Of a stretch of 64,000 nucleotides of DNA, positions 3,618-58,817 are shown piece by piece (position 1 is the first letter of the stretch; the number at the start of each line of letters is the position of its first letter). The DNA is from a virus (Duplodnaviria > Caudoviricetes): IMG/VR virus record IMGVR_UViG_3300028603_000002, positions 32,001-96,000 of that record. The stretch is one strand, 5' to 3'. The position numbers and the translations under genes are program-made. The notes under the pieces were generated by a model that saw only the letters and a list, made by a program, of their open reading frames with translations, was not told where the DNA came from and searched no databases.

Positions 3618-4802
3618 ATGGCGAAAAAGAAGAAAGCAGAGACTGTATCCGAGCTTGAAGATACATTGGCTAATGATATCATTAATGCTATCAATAGTAA
3701 TTTTTCCAAAAGTAAATATAAAACTGCATATCATTTAACTGATCCTGAAGCAATAAGCGATATTAGTGGATGGATTAGTACTGGATGTTCAATGTTAGAT
3801 TTAGCTATTAGCAACAGACCACATGGTGGACTTCCAATTGGAAGGATTACTGAAATAACTGGGATGGAGGCGTCAGGAAAATCTTTATTAGCTGCACATG
3901 CACTAGCAGATACACAAAGACAAGGAGGATTGGCAGTGTATATTGATACTGAAGCAGCGGTATCTCGGGAATTTTTAGAAGCTATTGGAATTGATGTTGA
4001 TACAATGTTATATATCCCATTGGAAACATTGGAAGATATATTTGAAACGATTGAATTAATAATTACTAAGGTTCGAGCATCTAATAAGGATAAAATTGTT
4101 ACTATTGTCACTGATAGTGTTATGGGTGCTACTACTAGAACTGAATTGGCTGGGGAATATGAAAAACAGGGTTGGAATACAGATAAATCAATTATCTTAA
4201 GTATGGCAATGCGAAAGATTACTAATATGATTGCAGCCCAGAAGATATGTTTAATTTTTACCAACCAATTAAGAACTAATTTAGGAGTTACTTTTGGTGA
4301 AAAATTTAGTACAAGCGGTGGTAAAGCACTCGCATTTCATTCGTCTGTAAGATTACGGTTAGCTGGCCAAGGACAAATAAAAATAGATGATTCAGTTGTT
4401 GGTATAAAAACTAAAGCTATTGTTAAGAAAAATAGATTAGGTCCACCATTAAGAACTGTAATATATGATATCTATTTTAGTTCTGGTATCGACAATTATG
4501 GTGCCTGGTTAACATTTCTCAAAGATTTGGGTGAAGTAAAGACAGGTGGTGCATGGTACACATTAACTTTAGATAAAGAAATGGATATAATTAAGAATCC
4601 AGAAACTGCTGAAGTAGTGTCTTTATCTGAAATTAAATTTTTAGCTAAAAACTTCCCTAGTTTATTAGAAATGAATCCTAATTTAAAAGAATACATATAT
4701 GATAAAATTTGTGAAAAGTATATCATGAAGTATAAAATTAACAAGGATTTTTCTATTGATGATGTTACTATTACAGATGATTTTGAAGGTGAAGAAAGCT
4801 AA
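3618..4802 (+). CDS. uvsX: RecA/UvsX recombinase
   Basis: GRITEITGMEASGKS Walker A, YIDTEAA, IFTNQLR, SGGKALAFHSSVRL, KNRLGPP. Confidence 0.95.
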   Translation: MAKKKKAETVSELEDTLANDIINAINSNFSKSKYKTAYHLTDPEAISDISGWISTGCSMLDLAISNRPHGGLPIGRITEITGMEASGKSLLAAHALADTQRQGGLAVYIDTEAAVSREFLEAIGIDVDTMLYIPLETLEDIFETIELIITKVRASNKDKIVTIVTDSVMGATTRTELAGEYEKQGWNTDKSIILSMAMRKITNMIAAQKICLIFTNQLRTNLGVTFGEKFSTSGGKALAFHSSVRLRLAGQGQIKIDDSVVGIKTKAIVKKNRLGPPLRTVIYDIYFSSGIDNYGAWLTFLKDLGEVKTGGAWYTLTLDKEMDIIKNPETAEVVSLSEIKFLAKNFPSLLEMNPNLKEYIYDKICEKYIMKYKINKDFSIDDVTITDDFEGEES

Positions 4803-46803: not shown

Positions 46804-47517
46804 ATGGAAAAACTGAGAATATTATATAAAGATGCTTTTTATCAAAATCTCCTTAAAGAAGGAGTATATGATCCCGCAATATTCAAGGCAATATTTATGG
46901 CAGGGGGGCCTGGTTCGGGAAAATCATATATTGCAAAAAAAGTAACAGGGGGATTAGGGTACAAATTCATAAGTTCAGATATTGCTTTTGAACATTTCTT
47001 AAATAAATTAAAGATGTCTCATAAATTGGATAAATTATCTGATGAGGAATTCAATAAAGTAATACGAACTAGAAATAGGGCAAAGGAACTAACTAAGAAA
47101 ATAAAAGCTTCTCATGAAGGTGGGAGATTAGGATTGATATTTGATGGTACAGGGTATGACTATTTAAAGATAAAAAAATTGAGGGATGAAATTACTAAGT
47201 ACGGATATGATACATATATGATTTTTGTGAATACTTCTTTGGATGTAGCATTAGAAAGAAATCAAAAGAGATCAAGAACTGTACCTGAAGACGTAGTGAT
47301 AGGAAAATGGAAAGCAGTGCAAGAAAATATTGGTAAATTTCAAAATTTATTTGGATCTAATTTTACTGTTATTGATAACAATACACCAGATGTTGAAGAA
47401 ACACTTGATTTAGAACGAAAGCAAGTCATGAAATTTACTAAAGCACCCATAAAAAATCCAATTGCGAAACAGTGGATTGATAGAGAATTAGAATTAAAAA
47501 ATAGATTAAGTAAATAA
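46804..47517 (+). CDS. Zeta-toxin-like P-loop kinase
   Basis: AGGPGSGKS, IFDGTG, ALERN..R.R.VP. Confidence 0.75.
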   Translation: MEKLRILYKDAFYQNLLKEGVYDPAIFKAIFMAGGPGSGKSYIAKKVTGGLGYKFISSDIAFEHFLNKLKMSHKLDKLSDEEFNKVIRTRNRAKELTKKIKASHEGGRLGLIFDGTGYDYLKIKKLRDEITKYGYDTYMIFVNTSLDVALERNQKRSRTVPEDVVIGKWKAVQENIGKFQNLFGSNFTVIDNNTPDVEETLDLERKQVMKFTKAPIKNPIAKQWIDRELELKNRLSK

Positions 47518-49034: not shown

Positions 49035-49406
49035 GGGCCATACAGGAATCGACAGGTATAAGAAGTATATTAGGCGATCCGCACAATGATATTAACGTGC
49101 GTCAAAAAGGTATATCAACACAGAGTTGACAAAAATGTCAGTTTAGATTTGGCACTAGAAGCATTGAAAAATGATACTAGCGGCGGCCGTGCTATTAACA
49201 TGGTTACCAAGCCAGCAGCTTTCGCGGTAGCTGCGTAAACCAAACCGTTCTTCCTGAGCTTTCTACCATGTGTAGGTAGCCAACAATGGTTTTTCTTATT
49301 GTACCCATTAAACAATAAGATGGTGGAGTTGCAGGGTTAGTTTATGATCGTTATTCCTAGTATATGTATTATGTTCTGGATGTGGGTTCGAATCCCACAT
49401 GGTCCA
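49035..49406 (+). ncRNA. ssrA: tmRNA
   Basis: GGGCCAT/ATGGTCC acceptor with G3:U70; GGAATCGAC; 3' T-arm GTGGG-TTCGAAT-CCCAC; tag ORF ending AAFAVAA*. Confidence 0.92.
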
Positions 49407-49480
49407 CTTCAAACATGGAATGGGTCACCTCTAGAGCAGGTGTTGCAATGGGGGTGGCTTTATTAAAAACAAGGAAAGAT

Positions 49481-51083: not shown

Positions 51084-51180
51084 GGAAGAGTAACGCCGTC
51101 AGACTGTAAATCTGATCCGCTTTAACAAATTGGCGTAGTTGGACTTCGCGGTAAGTCGGGTTCGAGTCCCACCTCTTCCA
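51084..51180 (+). tRNA. tRNA-Tyr(GUA)-like, D-armless with enlarged variable arm
   Basis: GGAAGAG/CTCTTCC acceptor, TCAGA-ctGTAaa-TCTGA; only 8 nt between acceptor and anticodon stems. Confidence 0.75.
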
Positions 51181-51450: not shown

Positions 51451-51524
51451 GCGGGTTACGCATAAGTGATGGTGCACCTGCCTTCCAAGCAGGAAAAGAG
51501 CCAGTTTGATCCTGGCAACCCGCA
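51451..51524 (+). tRNA. tRNA-Gly(UCC)
   Basis: CCTGC-ctTCCaa-GCAGG; GCGGGTT/AACCCGC. Confidence 0.85.
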
Positions 51525-52111: not shown

Positions 52112-52477
52112 ATGAAAACAGGATTTTATAATCTATCAACACTTTCTTTAGAAGAACTAAAGTCTTTTTATAAAGATACAATTCCTCTTTCATATTGTAT
52201 CATGTGTGAATCAAAATACACCACATATAAAAATAAATGGAGATCTGTAGATAATAAATACAATATCAATGATTATATTGAGAGAGTAAATCATGCTAAC
52301 CACAATGTTTGTATAGATAGATCAATTCAAGGAGCTAACCTCCCAGGAACTGAAAGAGGAGAGATTGGATTCAAATTACATGAAACATATGATAGAGACT
52401 GGCATCAAATAACATTCTATACTACATTAGAAAACTTTTATAAATTAGTTGACAAATTTAAACTAAAAGAATTATGA
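52112..52477 (+). CDS. Hypothetical protein
   Basis: ORF track. Confidence 0.55.
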   Translation: MKTGFYNLSTLSLEELKSFYKDTIPLSYCIMCESKYTTYKNKWRSVDNKYNINDYIERVNHANHNVCIDRSIQGANLPGTERGEIGFKLHETYDRDWHQITFYTTLENFYKLVDKFKLKEL

Positions 52478-53169
52478 GATGTTTAGCAGTTGGTGATATA
52501 CACGGCAATTATGATGCATTAATGGATGTATTAGAAAAATGTAATTATGATCCTAATAATGATATGTTAATTGCAATGGGCGATTATACTGATAGAGGAC
52601 CTAAAAACATTGCAGTAGTAGAATTTTTATTATCAATTGGTCATTTTATTGGATTACTTGGAAACCATGATGTTTGGGTAAGAGAATATCTAAATGGAAA
52701 TTATAGTGGAATAGATTGGATATTGAATGGTGGAAAAGTAACATATGATGAATATGAAAAAGCAAAGAAACTTGGTTCATTTGATATTGGTCTACATAAA
52801 GAATTCTTTAATAGTTTACATGAATATTATGTCTTAGAATTGAATGGTAAGAAGTATGGATTCGTCCATGGTGGATTTTATTCGTGGGATGGATTAGGAC
52901 ATGATGATACAGTAAAATATACTTGGTGCAGAGAGTTGTGGGAAGATGTATTTAATGGGCGGAATGAATCAGTAAAAAATCAGTTATCACATTATGATAC
53001 ATTATTTATAGGACATTGCCCGACAAATTTATATGGTGTTAAACCAGATAAACTTCCAGTTAAATATGCAAATGTTATTAACCTAGACCAAGGTATTGCT
53101 TATGAAAATGGAAGATTAACAATATGTGATATAGAAACTGAACAATGTTGGCAATCCAGTAAAAAGTAA
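52474..53169 (+). CDS. Ser/Thr protein phosphatase-type metallophosphoesterase (lambda NinI-like)
   Basis: GDIHG, GDYTDRG, GNHD, NGG, VHGG, GH. Confidence 0.9.
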   Translation: MRCLAVGDIHGNYDALMDVLEKCNYDPNNDMLIAMGDYTDRGPKNIAVVEFLLSIGHFIGLLGNHDVWVREYLNGNYSGIDWILNGGKVTYDEYEKAKKLGSFDIGLHKEFFNSLHEYYVLELNGKKYGFVHGGFYSWDGLGHDDTVKYTWCRELWEDVFNGRNESVKNQLSHYDTLFIGHCPTNLYGVKPDKLPVKYANVINLDQGIAYENGRLTICDIETEQCWQSSKK

Positions 53170-54110: not shown

Positions 54111-54192
54111 AGGCGTATACCAGCCCATCCTGATAAGATGGAGAACTGTAGCAGGTAAGTTGAAAACATGGGTTCGAATCCCATTACGCCTA
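54111..54192 (+). tRNA. tRNA-Ile(GAU)-like, D-armless with enlarged variable arm
   Basis: AGGCGTA/TACGCCT acceptor, CCATC-ctGATaa-GATGG, ATGGG-TTCGAAT-CCCAT; 7-nt D-remnant. Confidence 0.78.
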
Positions 54193-54472: not shown

Positions 54473-54559
54473 GTGTACGAATCGGATATGGTTTGCCGAG
54501 TCAGGTTGTGACCCTGGTGTGATGAAAGTCACGTGCGAGTTCGAATCTCGTCGTACACC
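54473..54559 (+). tRNA. tRNA-His(GUG) with long variable arm
   Basis: TCAGG-ttGTGac-CCTGG; C73; extra arm GTGAT-gaaa-GTCAC. Confidence 0.8.
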
Positions 54560-54734: not shown

Positions 54735-55319
54735 ATGAGAATAATATTCGATATTCATGGAAAGATGCATCGGTATAAACAATTAACAACTGATGTCAAA
54801 AAGAGTGTACAAATAGGTGATTTAGGATTTAAAAGTCAACATGAATGGTTTTTAGCTAATATGGATTGTGATAATCATAAAGTATTATTTGGTAACCATG
54901 ATTATTATCCATATATAAATCTAAAACATTCGTTGGGTGATTTTGCTTTCTATGAAGGAATATTCTTTATACGTGGTGCTGCTTCAATTGATAAAGCATA
55001 TAGAGTTGCTTATAGAGATTGGTTCCCAGAAGAAGAATTGAATTTTAGACAAATGACTGAATGTTTCAATCTTTATAGTGAAATTAAACCAAAGATTGTA
55101 GTTAGTCATGATTGCCCACAAGCTGTATGCAAAGAATTATTCGGGCATCCAGGTTCTCACACAAGAAATTTTTTACAATTATTATTTGAAGAACATCAAC
55201 CTGATATGTGGTTATTTGGCCACCACCATCAAAATGTAGAATTGGTTCTTGATAATACTTATTTTAAATGTGGTGAAGAATTAGAATATTATGATATATC
55301 AGAAAATTTATTAAAATGA
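54735..55319 (+). CDS. Metallophosphoesterase
   Basis: DIHG, GDLG, GNHD, SHDCP, GHHH. Confidence 0.88.
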   Translation: MRIIFDIHGKMHRYKQLTTDVKKSVQIGDLGFKSQHEWFLANMDCDNHKVLFGNHDYYPYINLKHSLGDFAFYEGIFFIRGAASIDKAYRVAYRDWFPEEELNFRQMTECFNLYSEIKPKIVVSHDCPQAVCKELFGHPGSHTRNFLQLLFEEHQPDMWLFGHHHQNVELVLDNTYFKCGEELEYYDISENLLK

Positions 55320-55322
55320 AAA

Positions 55323-55396
55323 GGCGCTATGGCGGAATTGGCATACGCACATGTTTTAGGAACATGGTCTTGTGGGTTCGAGTCCCACTGGCGCTA
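55323..55396 (+). tRNA. tRNA-Leu(UAG) with short variable loop
   Basis: CATGT-ttTAGga-ACATG; variable region only GTCTT. Confidence 0.82.
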
Positions 55397-55401
55397 CTAA
55401 T

Positions 55402-56732: not shown

Positions 56733-58817
56733 ATGGAAAAACATGAATTGAAGCACAAAATTACTTTCCTAAAAGTTAAAGGGCTTCATGTTAAACAAGG
56801 TTCTGATTCAGGTAATGATAGCCTAGTACATCAAATCAACCATGAGTTGATGGGTATAGGTTATATACTTGAAAAAGACCTATTTGATAGGTTATGTACT
56901 TTAAAAGAAGGGCAGTTAAATAATGTCTATCATGGAATTGTATCCGCTATAAAAGATGTAGTTGGTGATTCTGATGGATATGAGCCTATCTACAGAAACT
57001 TTCCTCAATCAGTATTAAGCAAGTCTCATTTTGAATTATTCGTCAATGCTATAATTCATTATTGGTCACTTGGTACTTGGAGACCCGAGGATGAAGAATT
57101 TCTTAATAGAGAAGTTAAGTTAGAAAAGGTTGAATTTAAACCTGTTAGATTGCTTATCGATGAACAATTCCACAAAGTATTTGAAAACATTGCTTATAGT
57201 GGTGAATCAATAAGTGCTTTTGATAAGGAAGCTATTGATTTTTATATTGATAATTATGATGCTGTGAATATTGAATTGAGTAAAATCAGGTTCAAAGAAA
57301 CTGCATCATATATTGGTAAGAGATTGATGGATAGTAAAATTCAAATGTTACCAACTAAATCTGCTACTACTGTATTGCGTATAATGAGTGCATATTCTGG
57401 AGGTGATGAGGGATTGAAGGAAAATACTAAATTCAAAAATCCATCAACCAGACAGTGTAATATATTACGTAGGACATTGGAGCAATGTTTTGATTTAGAA
57501 GATTCATTCAAAACATATCGTGAACCATGGTTAAGGTTGTTATTTTACTTGAATCCATTAGCTTCGAATAATGTTAAGAAGTACCCAAACCTTGCAGCAT
57601 ATACTAACCTATTAAGGAATGATCCTGGGTTGTTGGAAACATTCAATGCTAAAGTTGAAAAAGCATTGCAACATAAAAGTCCTGGTATATTTGAATTGTT
57701 GAAACACCGTCCAGGAGTATTTACTAGAAGATTAGATCATTTAGTACGGGTATTTGGTGAAGTTGCAATTGATAATTACCTTCAATTATCAAAATTATCA
57801 TTTGCTAATTTAATTGATGCATATAACCATTTCAGAAGTAGAGACAAAGTACAAAATTCCCGTTCTTCCGTAGTTGCATCAAGTAAAAGAAGCAATGCAC
57901 ATTCATATAAAGCATTAGATGCATTAGATTCAAAACTAGTAGTATCTATTACATCAAAGATCCTTAATAGGATGGTTGATATGAAGGTACAAGGTTTTGA
58001 GGATAAGAAAGTATTCATTGATCGTCAATGGTATTTCAAATCAATTCCAACTAATAATAGAGCGGCTGATTTATCATTAACTCAAAATGCATCATTTGAT
58101 TGTGAGTTATATGATGATAAGAAGAAATGTATCAGGATGTATGTACATTGGCCAGGTAGGTTTGATATTGATTTATCAGGTTGGTTGGTAAATGAAGACA
58201 GAACAGAAGTTCAGAAAATTGGTTGGAATGCTAGATATCATGACAGTGATGGTGCAGTTGTTTATTCAGGTGATAATACAGGTTATAGTGCTAAGAATGC
58301 TGAATACTTAGATATCAATATTCCGAAATTAAAGAAGAAGAGTATTGAGTGGGTAATAACTGAGGCTAGAGTATATCGAGGACCCAAGTTCTCAAAATGG
58401 TCAGGTCAAGGTGTCCATACAGGATTCATGGGTATTGATCATCCTGAAGCAAATAATAGATGGCAACCAAAAACATTGGAAAATGCCATTAAGGTAACAG
58501 TTGATACAGGTAATGTTTATTTAATTGCATTCCATATACCGACTATGAATGTTGTTTATTTAAACTTATCCAGTCCAGATAATAATAGTGTTTCAAATGC
58601 TGATACAGTATTGAAATTCCTAGATATGGTTGAACAAAATGCTGCTTTAGATTCCGGAGCTGTCGAATTTAGAATGTTGGAACTAGGTAGAAAGATAACT
58701 ATTGGTCACGCTATACAGATGAGAATGCCAGCATTATCTGATACGTTAGAAGGAGCGGATGTTGTATTTGATGAAAATACACAAGTTGAAGAACTTCTAA
58801 CAATAGTTAATGACTAA
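56733..58817 (+). CDS. ROT/TROVE-like helical plus C-terminal TerD-domain protein (SCO0854/MXAN_6230-like family, RING absent)
   Basis: PIYRNFP..V, NAIIHYW, RPG.FTRRLDHL.R; TerD motifs DIDLS, YSGD, AEYLDI. Confidence 0.7.
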   Translation: MEKHELKHKITFLKVKGLHVKQGSDSGNDSLVHQINHELMGIGYILEKDLFDRLCTLKEGQLNNVYHGIVSAIKDVVGDSDGYEPIYRNFPQSVLSKSHFELFVNAIIHYWSLGTWRPEDEEFLNREVKLEKVEFKPVRLLIDEQFHKVFENIAYSGESISAFDKEAIDFYIDNYDAVNIELSKIRFKETASYIGKRLMDSKIQMLPTKSATTVLRIMSAYSGGDEGLKENTKFKNPSTRQCNILRRTLEQCFDLEDSFKTYREPWLRLLFYLNPLASNNVKKYPNLAAYTNLLRNDPGLLETFNAKVEKALQHKSPGIFELLKHRPGVFTRRLDHLVRVFGEVAIDNYLQLSKLSFANLIDAYNHFRSRDKVQNSRSSVVASSKRSNAHSYKALDALDSKLVVSITSKILNRMVDMKVQGFEDKKVFIDRQWYFKSIPTNNRAADLSLTQNASFDCELYDDKKKCIRMYVHWPGRFDIDLSGWLVNEDRTEVQKIGWNARYHDSDGAVVYSGDNTGYSAKNAEYLDINIPKLKKKSIEWVITEARVYRGPKFSKWSGQGVHTGFMGIDHPEANNRWQPKTLENAIKVTVDTGNVYLIAFHIPTMNVVYLNLSSPDNNSVSNADTVLKFLDMVEQNAALDSGAVEFRMLELGRKITIGHAIQMRMPALSDTLEGADVVFDENTQVEELLTIVND

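Follow-up and report, generated by a model that had tools for sequence, protein, structure and literature searches.

The locus at positions 51084-51180 (+) raises the question of how a tyrosine tRNA can be built when UAACGCCG alone lies where the D arm is expected. The gene, a tRNA-Tyr(GUA) of 97 nt in which CCA is not encoded, had been described in the initial annotation as a D-armless tRNA whose D remnant pairs with a loop in an enlarged variable arm. The window, that is, the whole stretch of 64,000 nucleotides that was analysed, comprises bases 32001-96000 of a complete viral record of 171,908 bp with direct terminal repeats (CheckV 100%, 31.7% GC). This record carries T4-type replication genes (PolB, a DnaB-like helicase, a UvsX-like recombinase and a ribonucleotide reductase), and the genome hosting the gene is that of a T4-like phage, the polymerase of which is closest to that of Microcystis phage Mel-JY01 (40% identity), with those of cyanomyoviruses next. 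Our analysis indicates that the locus is very probably a tyrosine tRNA gene of non-cloverleaf design, with one D-stem strand and the D-loop housed inside the variable arm. Its elements are the following:

51084-51090 and 51173-51179 (+): acceptor stem, GGAAGAG with CTCTTCC, 7/7 bp
51091-51092 (+): junction U8 A9, the same in 86/86 members of the family described below and also recovered with a search pattern that left both positions free
51093-51098 (+): D remnant ACGCCG, equivalent to the canonical 22-26 strand, joining the anticodon stem directly and pairing with 51131-51136
51099-51115 (+): anticodon arm TCAGA-CTGTAAA-TCTGA, with a 5-bp stem, the loop CUGUAAA and GUA at 51106-51108
between the anticodon arm and the variable stem (+): spacer U
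51117-51120 and 51148-51151 (+): variable-arm stem, CCGC with GCGG, covarying in homologs
51121-51130 (+): A-rich linker TTTAACAAAT (in RNA, UUUAACAAAU), leading from the variable stem back to the core
51123-51126 and 51138-51141 (+): inner stem, TAAC with GTTG, seen in the window copy
51131-51136 (+): relocated partner strand TGGCGT, equivalent to canonical 44 plus 10-13, pairing with 51093-51098
51137-51147 (+): D-loop mimic A-GTTGG-ACTTC (in RNA, AGUUGGACUUC), with GG at 51141-51142; GG is present in 82/86 members
51152-51153 (+): U69 A70, following the 3' strand of the variable stem, the same in 86/86 members without being forced by the patterns; the junction reads UAA
51155-51172 (+): T arm, GTcGGG / TTCGAGT / CCCAC, with one surplus base in the 5' strand
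51180 (+): discriminator A73

The acceptor, anticodon and T arms recognised in the initial annotation are thus all in place, the T stem with its surplus base. Measured against a cloverleaf, the gene has a 7-bp acceptor stem on a 5-bp T stem (one bulge) with T54 and A58, and a 7-nt anticodon loop with U33 and R37, while a local D hairpin at 10-25 is missing, only 6 nt separating A9 from the anticodon stem. The paired variable arm, the GUA anticodon and A73 are those of a class-II bacterial tRNA-Tyr. Standard tools pass over it: ARAGORN called 22 tRNAs, whether run on the window or on the whole genome, and this gene was not among them; the Rfam tRNA model RF00005 gave 26.1 bits (E 8.9e-4) in a 146-nt search, short of the gathering cut-off of 29, and a search at E ≤ 1 over 11 kb did not list it. 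In the Rfam alignment, 15 D-arm positions are deleted, and insertions of 37 nt in the variable region and 1 nt in the T stem are opened. On the other hand, a covariance model of its own family (R1) scored the window gene at 90.8 bits (E 2.6e-22).

This family consists of 86 distinct relatives of 87-97 nt (alignment A1), retrieved with sequence patterns from IMG/VR, from JGI/ENA metagenomes and from a set comprising a single genome for each prokaryotic species (185,579 species according to the tool description). Because TAAC, the anticodon loop, AAAT, G49 and GTA were prescribed in the patterns, these columns are uninformative and the diversity is under-sampled; likewise, the linker consensus nTTAACAAAT found across homologs is in part set by the patterns. 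Alignment A1 and model R1, both from the present analysis, define what we refer to as the rewired phage tRNA-Tyr class. Its signature, a U8-A9-ACNNCN remnant together with an NGNNGU strand in the variable-arm loop followed by A-N(N)-U-G-G, is found in the window gene.

The initial annotation proposed that the D stem is rebuilt as a pseudoknot, and covariation of remnant and loop in homologs as a way to check it. In the window copy, GGCGT (51132-51136) is the complement of ACGCC (51093-51097), and the ACGCC/GGCGU pairing around the anticodon arm already appears in the RNAfold minimum-energy structure computed from that copy alone. On the 86 sequences, the pseudoknotted structure is 97.1% paired as against 70.3% in shuffles, and its covariation score is 0.712 as against 0.185 in shuffles and 0.10-0.16 with slid partners, the shuffle controls overstating significance since many homologs are related to one another. 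Within the remnant/partner helix, pair 12:51 is GC in 62 members and AU in 24, pair 13:50 takes six pair types, and neither is unpaired in any member, whereas pair 15:48 is non-Watson-Crick in 38/86, like the canonical 26:44. The helix 10-14/49-53 was also predicted unaided by RNAalifold. The CCGC/GCGG stem claimed for the variable region behaves in the same way, 35:67 (UA 61, CG 23) and 36:66 (GC 54, CG 25) being 97.6% paired. All seven acceptor pairs covary (97.5% paired), as do the three free pairs of the anticodon stem (100% paired), and compensatory changes were found in all five helices. A73, T54, A58, C34:G68 and U69-A70 are invariant in the 86 members, although none was imposed by the patterns. 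Together, the remnant/partner helix and the variable stem support the proposed pseudoknot.

A partner strand was also found by an anchor-free test. A perfect 5-bp partner for the remnant was present in the variable region of 86/86 members, when 9.6 were expected from shuffles, and among members recovered with a pattern restricted to the 5' part it was present in 15/15 as against 1.7 expected; a reversed-remnant control gave a high count (31/86), the remnants being near-palindromic, and carries no information. These data bear on a reading in which the locus is a chance resemblance or a degenerate tRNA remnant without any selected structure. The failure of ARAGORN and of the Rfam gathering score is what such a reading would predict, but it is contradicted by the anchor-free result and by the 86 conserved homologs, which belong to unrelated phage lineages and habitats and show compensatory changes in five helices; we regard it as extremely improbable.

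Other parts of the original description need amendment. The inner TAAC/GTTG stem can be drawn in the window copy, but it is not conserved (49.2% paired as against 49.0% in shuffles) and was rejected as a structural element. The D-loop-like loop containing GGCGT does hold the complement of ACGCC, yet the mimic follows the partner strand and is not a hairpin loop. Similarly, the term D-armless is right in that no local D hairpin exists, but the 10-21 segment has been relocated rather than lost. In the three members without the GG, the T loop is TGCAAAT and has no TTC either. This joint loss, probably in one lineage, is only a hint of a contact between the GG and the T loop.

The homologs come from Crassvirales, from T4-like and jumbo phages, from human-gut contigs of about 175 kb and from one contig of 387 kb, and their habitats include gut, rumen, sea, lake, sludge and sediment. 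The sole true match in the one-per-species prokaryotic set lies on a 93-kb MAG contig, and from these matches the design looks essentially phage-restricted; a pattern match in a Chloroflexia MAG (L279) was due to chance and is no tRNA. A sensitive blastn search found a homolog in the cultured gut phage crAss001 and its relatives, in an unannotated gap between tRNA-Lys and tRNA-Phe (in crAss001, at about 4141-4235 of MH675552); the GenBank record of crAss001 carries no annotation for it, and the original ARAGORN-based description counted 25 tRNAs for 17 amino acids (PMC6235969). A megablast search of the tRNA island of the window against phages matched a tRNA-Lys fragment only. No family members with non-G34 anticodons, such as suppressors, were found in IMG/VR: a loose pattern for other anticodons gave no valid gene among the at least 118 loci listed, mostly chance matches, and the four matches to a tighter pattern were all chance matches in coding regions.

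At the 163 loci considered, the rewired Tyr gene forms part of tRNA arrays; a locus has a median of 7 tRNAs, and the closest tRNA on the same strand lies at a median distance of 14.5 nt. It is the only Tyr gene in 155 of them; a canonical tRNA-Tyr is also present in the other 8, which means that the supply of tRNA-Tyr does not always depend on the rewired gene alone. One locus carries two rewired copies (L170:2692-2786 and L170:2871-2982), the second of which is interrupted directly after the partner strand, and in L162:1172-1255 and the identical L224 the 3' strand of the variable stem has been lost and a canonical tRNA-Tyr adjoins; judging from their sequences, the second L170 copy and the L162/L224 copies look like decaying members. 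As further variation in A1, an A·G mismatch occurs at 5:68 in 11 members, and 17 of the 86 genes have C1:G72 (columns 1 and 96). C1:G72 is the Tyr identity pair of archaea and eukaryotes, the bacterial one being G1:C72.

The window gene belongs to a tRNA island at 48.2-56.2 kb. The island and its surroundings include these further features:

46804-47517, 52474-53169 and 54735-55319 (+): P-loop kinase (AAA_33/Zeta-toxin-like) and two calcineurin-like metallophosphoesterases
49035-49409 (+): tmRNA, full length, inside the island (Rfam RF00023, 54.4 bits)
51451-51524 (+): tRNA-Gly(UCC), Rfam 44.7 bits, no ARAGORN call
54111-54192 (+): rewired tRNA-Ile(GAU), no ARAGORN call, no D hairpin, 26-nt variable region
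54473-54559 (+): tRNA-His(GUG) of 87 nt, with an 8-bp acceptor stem, a 4-bp T stem and a long paired variable arm
55323-55397 (+): tRNA-Leu(UAG) of 75 nt, with a variable region of 5 nt

When Gly-UCC, Ile-GAU and the rewired Tyr, all missed by ARAGORN, are counted, the island covers all 20 amino acids, and the earlier statement that this is the only Tyr tRNA in an otherwise complete set holds for the complete genome: neither a canonical tRNA-Tyr nor any other tRNA with a GUA anticodon was found there. Neither a TyrRS nor a CCA-adding enzyme was found in the complete genome, and in the absence of a phage TyrRS the host enzyme would have to charge the rewired tRNA. The kinase and metallophosphoesterase genes are interleaved with the tRNA genes, and the set resembles polynucleotide kinase/phosphatase RNA-repair enzymes. 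Beside the array, an ORF of 694 aa (56733-58817) had no Pfam match and matched PHROG 33734, to which no function is assigned. Bacterial tRNA-Leu normally has a long variable arm, unlike the one at 55323-55397.

The tRNA-Ile(GAU) of the same island indicates that relocation of the D strand extends to another amino acid. The Rfam alignment, at 36.9 bits, deletes its D arm and inserts 23 nt in the variable region, and R1 scored it at 32.3 bits. In this gene, CAG (54121-54123) pairs with CTG (54146-54148) and C54124 with G54143, followed by UA and a GG-bearing loop. A structural scan of the fetched loci revealed further ARAGORN-missed tRNAs with the same relocated layout, and a dedicated scan yielded a class of Ile(GAU) and Ile(UAU) genes, with an alignment of 20 sequences that includes 54111-54192 and members from other phage contigs. 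Here the partner of the remnant is the strand immediately 3' to the anticodon arm, and this partner is again followed by U-A-NNN-G-G, and pairs 13:43 (CG 14, AU 3, GC 3) and 15:38 (CG 12, GC 4, GU 1) covary; as there is no variable stem, the structure is nested and not pseudoknotted. We put forward only tentatively the broad view that there is a core-permuted class of phage tRNAs (Tyr-GUA, Ile-GAU, Ile-UAU and perhaps Arg) that would be charged by the host, used by the ribosome and selected to evade immune nucleases.

We found no description of a rewired tRNA-Tyr in full-text searches or in reviews of non-canonical tRNAs (PMC7609411, PMC5389517). Fremin et al. (2023) report a candidate viral structured RNA, DNAVirus_1423, that sometimes overlaps ARAGORN tRNA-Tyr calls, and this candidate might be the rewired tRNA-Tyr family. 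With canonical class-II tRNA-Tyr(GUA), such as E. coli tyrT/tyrU or the neighbour of the rewired gene in locus L218, the RNA shares the 7-bp acceptor stem, the 5-bp T stem, the TTCGA loop, the CUGUAAA loop, A73, the setting in a tRNA array and a paired long variable arm starting 1 nt past the anticodon stem. It differs in that positions 10-25 form no D hairpin: the D loop and the 5' strand of the D stem lie in the variable-arm loop, and its D helix is formed at long range across the anticodon arm, which makes a pseudoknot of what is otherwise a cloverleaf.

Metazoan mt-tRNA-Ser(AGY) likewise lacks a D hairpin and has a short connector into an extended anticodon-side helix; in mitochondrial D-armless tRNAs, however, the arm is simply lost, the molecules are short, and the aaRS and EF-Tu are adapted to them (PMC9427863, PMC4013460). 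The rewired RNA keeps a D-type helix and a GG loop supplied from downstream and is longer than normal; its connector is not the unpaired one, devoid of a compensating helix, of the mitochondrial type, as it pairs downstream with covariation. Since there is no phage TyrRS, it must moreover use ordinary bacterial factors. Circularly permuted and split tRNA genes (Cyanidioschyzon merolae, Nanoarchaeum) also have segments in a non-canonical linear order, but processing restores that order and the mature cloverleaf (PMC3978253). In the rewired gene, by contrast, the 5' and 3' acceptor strands lie at the gene ends in the normal order, and the rearranged order would be expected to persist in the mature RNA. 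The 8/4 and 9/3 allo-tRNAs and the (8/4) tRNA-His of Mukai et al. (2017) are also deviant, found in phage clusters and missed or mis-scored, and the tRNA-His at 54473-54559 of the window resembles their phage (8/4) tRNA-His; in those variants, stem lengths are altered within the cloverleaf, and none has a relocated D strand or a pseudoknot (PMC5389517). Finally, phage T5 encodes a tRNA-Tyr with a variable arm unlike that of its host; as far as the papers describe it, this is a normal cloverleaf, unlike the rewired class, and by analogy it offers a possible selective reason for remodelling of the variable region (PMC13096335, PMC11555353).

On this basis, we consider it rather likely that the window gene is a working tRNA-Tyr of a conserved phage class with a rewired core, its charging and decoding being inferred. 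In the fold that we propose, nothing would be unusual about the acceptor/T minihelix (7 + 5 bp) or the anticodon arm, and the 6 nt after U8-A9 would act as the canonical 3' D-stem strand (22-26), leading straight into the anticodon stem. The 5' strand of the D stem, together with a short mimic of the D loop (A-N-U-G-G-A), would be housed in the loop of the class-II variable arm, and the relocated strand would pair back across the anticodon arm to form a 5-bp helix and a 26:44-like pair. The partner would be followed by U-A and an N-U-G-G-A loop, the expected site of A14 and G18-G19, so that the net effect would be to move the 10-21 segment into the variable-arm loop. The relocated GG and a U8/A54 pair may then rebuild the elbow and the core. 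RNase P, the CCA-adding enzyme and EF-Tu recognise mainly the acceptor/T minihelix, which this fold would leave unaltered. Excision from the tRNA array would fall to RNase P and 3' nucleases, a host enzyme would add CCA, the host TyrRS would charge the RNA via A73, G34-U35 and the long variable arm, and the RNA would decode UAY codons. As to why such a design was selected, our preferred guess is that it may allow escape from nucleases of the host for which the D/variable region of tRNA-Tyr serves as the recognition or cleavage site.

The fold just described assumes that the variable region stays in the RNA and that the window copy is intact. If the 37-nt variable block were instead an intervening sequence, its removal would leave a truly D-armless, mitochondrion-like tRNA, a reading suggested by Rfam's treatment of the block as a pure insertion. 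This block covaries with the 5' remnant, which makes it part of the selected structure, and bulge-helix-bulge or group I features are absent; we know of no bacterial system that splices at this position of the variable region. In RNA-library contigs of two crAss001 studies (Logan), the gene is covered colinearly, with no joints, indels or spliced form; such contigs, blind to ends, strand and level and open to DNA carry-over, argue weakly against splicing and do not count as evidence that the gene is expressed. One run (X8) gave no coverage of the gene, a result without weight either way. We hold removal of the block to be very improbable. A less drastic possibility is that the family is functional and the window copy a recent pseudogene, its T arm disrupted by the extra base at 51156 or 51157 (GTcGGG, 51155-51160). 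This base occurs in the window copy only (1/86 members), both Rfam and R1 have to open a 1-nt insertion in the T-stem 5' strand to accommodate it, and it could interfere with EF-Tu or with processing. It could equally be an indel error of metagenome assembly, and an exact 24-mer search of viral contigs found no independent assembly covering it. A single bulge still leaves G:C, U:A, G:C, G:C and G:C in the T stem, all other helices are intact, the R1 score remains high, and the complete genome, with tRNAs for all other amino acids, has no Tyr gene besides this copy; recent decay of this copy seems quite unlikely to us.

The remaining alternative concerns function rather than structure. The RNA could be a tRNA-Tyr mimic acting outside translation, as a decoy or sponge for a Septu/PtuAB-type or colicin-E5-type nuclease or for another tRNA-binding factor, in which case selection would keep the tRNA-like shape and the anticodon loop without charging. 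Septu and retron-Eco7 (PtuAB) cleave the variable arm of tRNA-Tyr at positions 48/49, overexpressed phage tRNA-Tyr neutralises both systems, and the tRNA-Tyr of T5 resists cleavage through its distinctive variable loop (PMC13096335, PMC11555353). The 8 loci that keep a canonical tRNA-Tyr beside the rewired one, and the island with its RNA-repair-like set of a P-loop kinase and two metallophosphoesterases, also fit a decoy. However, the invariant A73, T54 and A58 and the 7/5 acceptor-T minihelix would be needless in a decoy for a variable-arm nuclease, the rewired gene is the only Tyr gene in most loci (155/163) as well as in the complete genome of the window with its full set, and the same rewiring occurs in the Ile class; to our knowledge, there is no Ile-specific nuclease. 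A role solely as a decoy is therefore unlikely in our opinion. A translated tRNA, the reading that we prefer, may itself profit from its shape: by analogy, and speculatively, locking the loop of the variable arm into the core would be a plausible way to escape nucleases, although nuclease escape leaves the Ile class unexplained.

In summary, the present window adds to the rewired family a member from a complete T4-like genome, a unique T-stem irregularity, co-occurrence statistics and an ascertainment control restricted to the 5' part. Phage tRNA complements, that of crAss001 for example, are under-counted, and since crAss001 is in culture together with its host, Bacteroides intestinalis, the rewired Tyr gene is directly testable. 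As tRNA-Tyr is a target of Septu and retron-Eco7, the rewired class may represent anti-defence tRNAs of a novel type. Provided that they are charged and do decode, the rewired RNAs would be, as far as we found, the first non-cloverleaf elongator tRNAs that work with the standard bacterial machinery, with RNase P, the CCA enzyme, TyrRS, EF-Tu and the ribosome reading shape rather than topology. The L-shape could then be built from a different strand connectivity, and that of the cloverleaf would not be required for bacterial translation, which would bear on the evolution of tRNA and on the design of orthogonal tRNAs.
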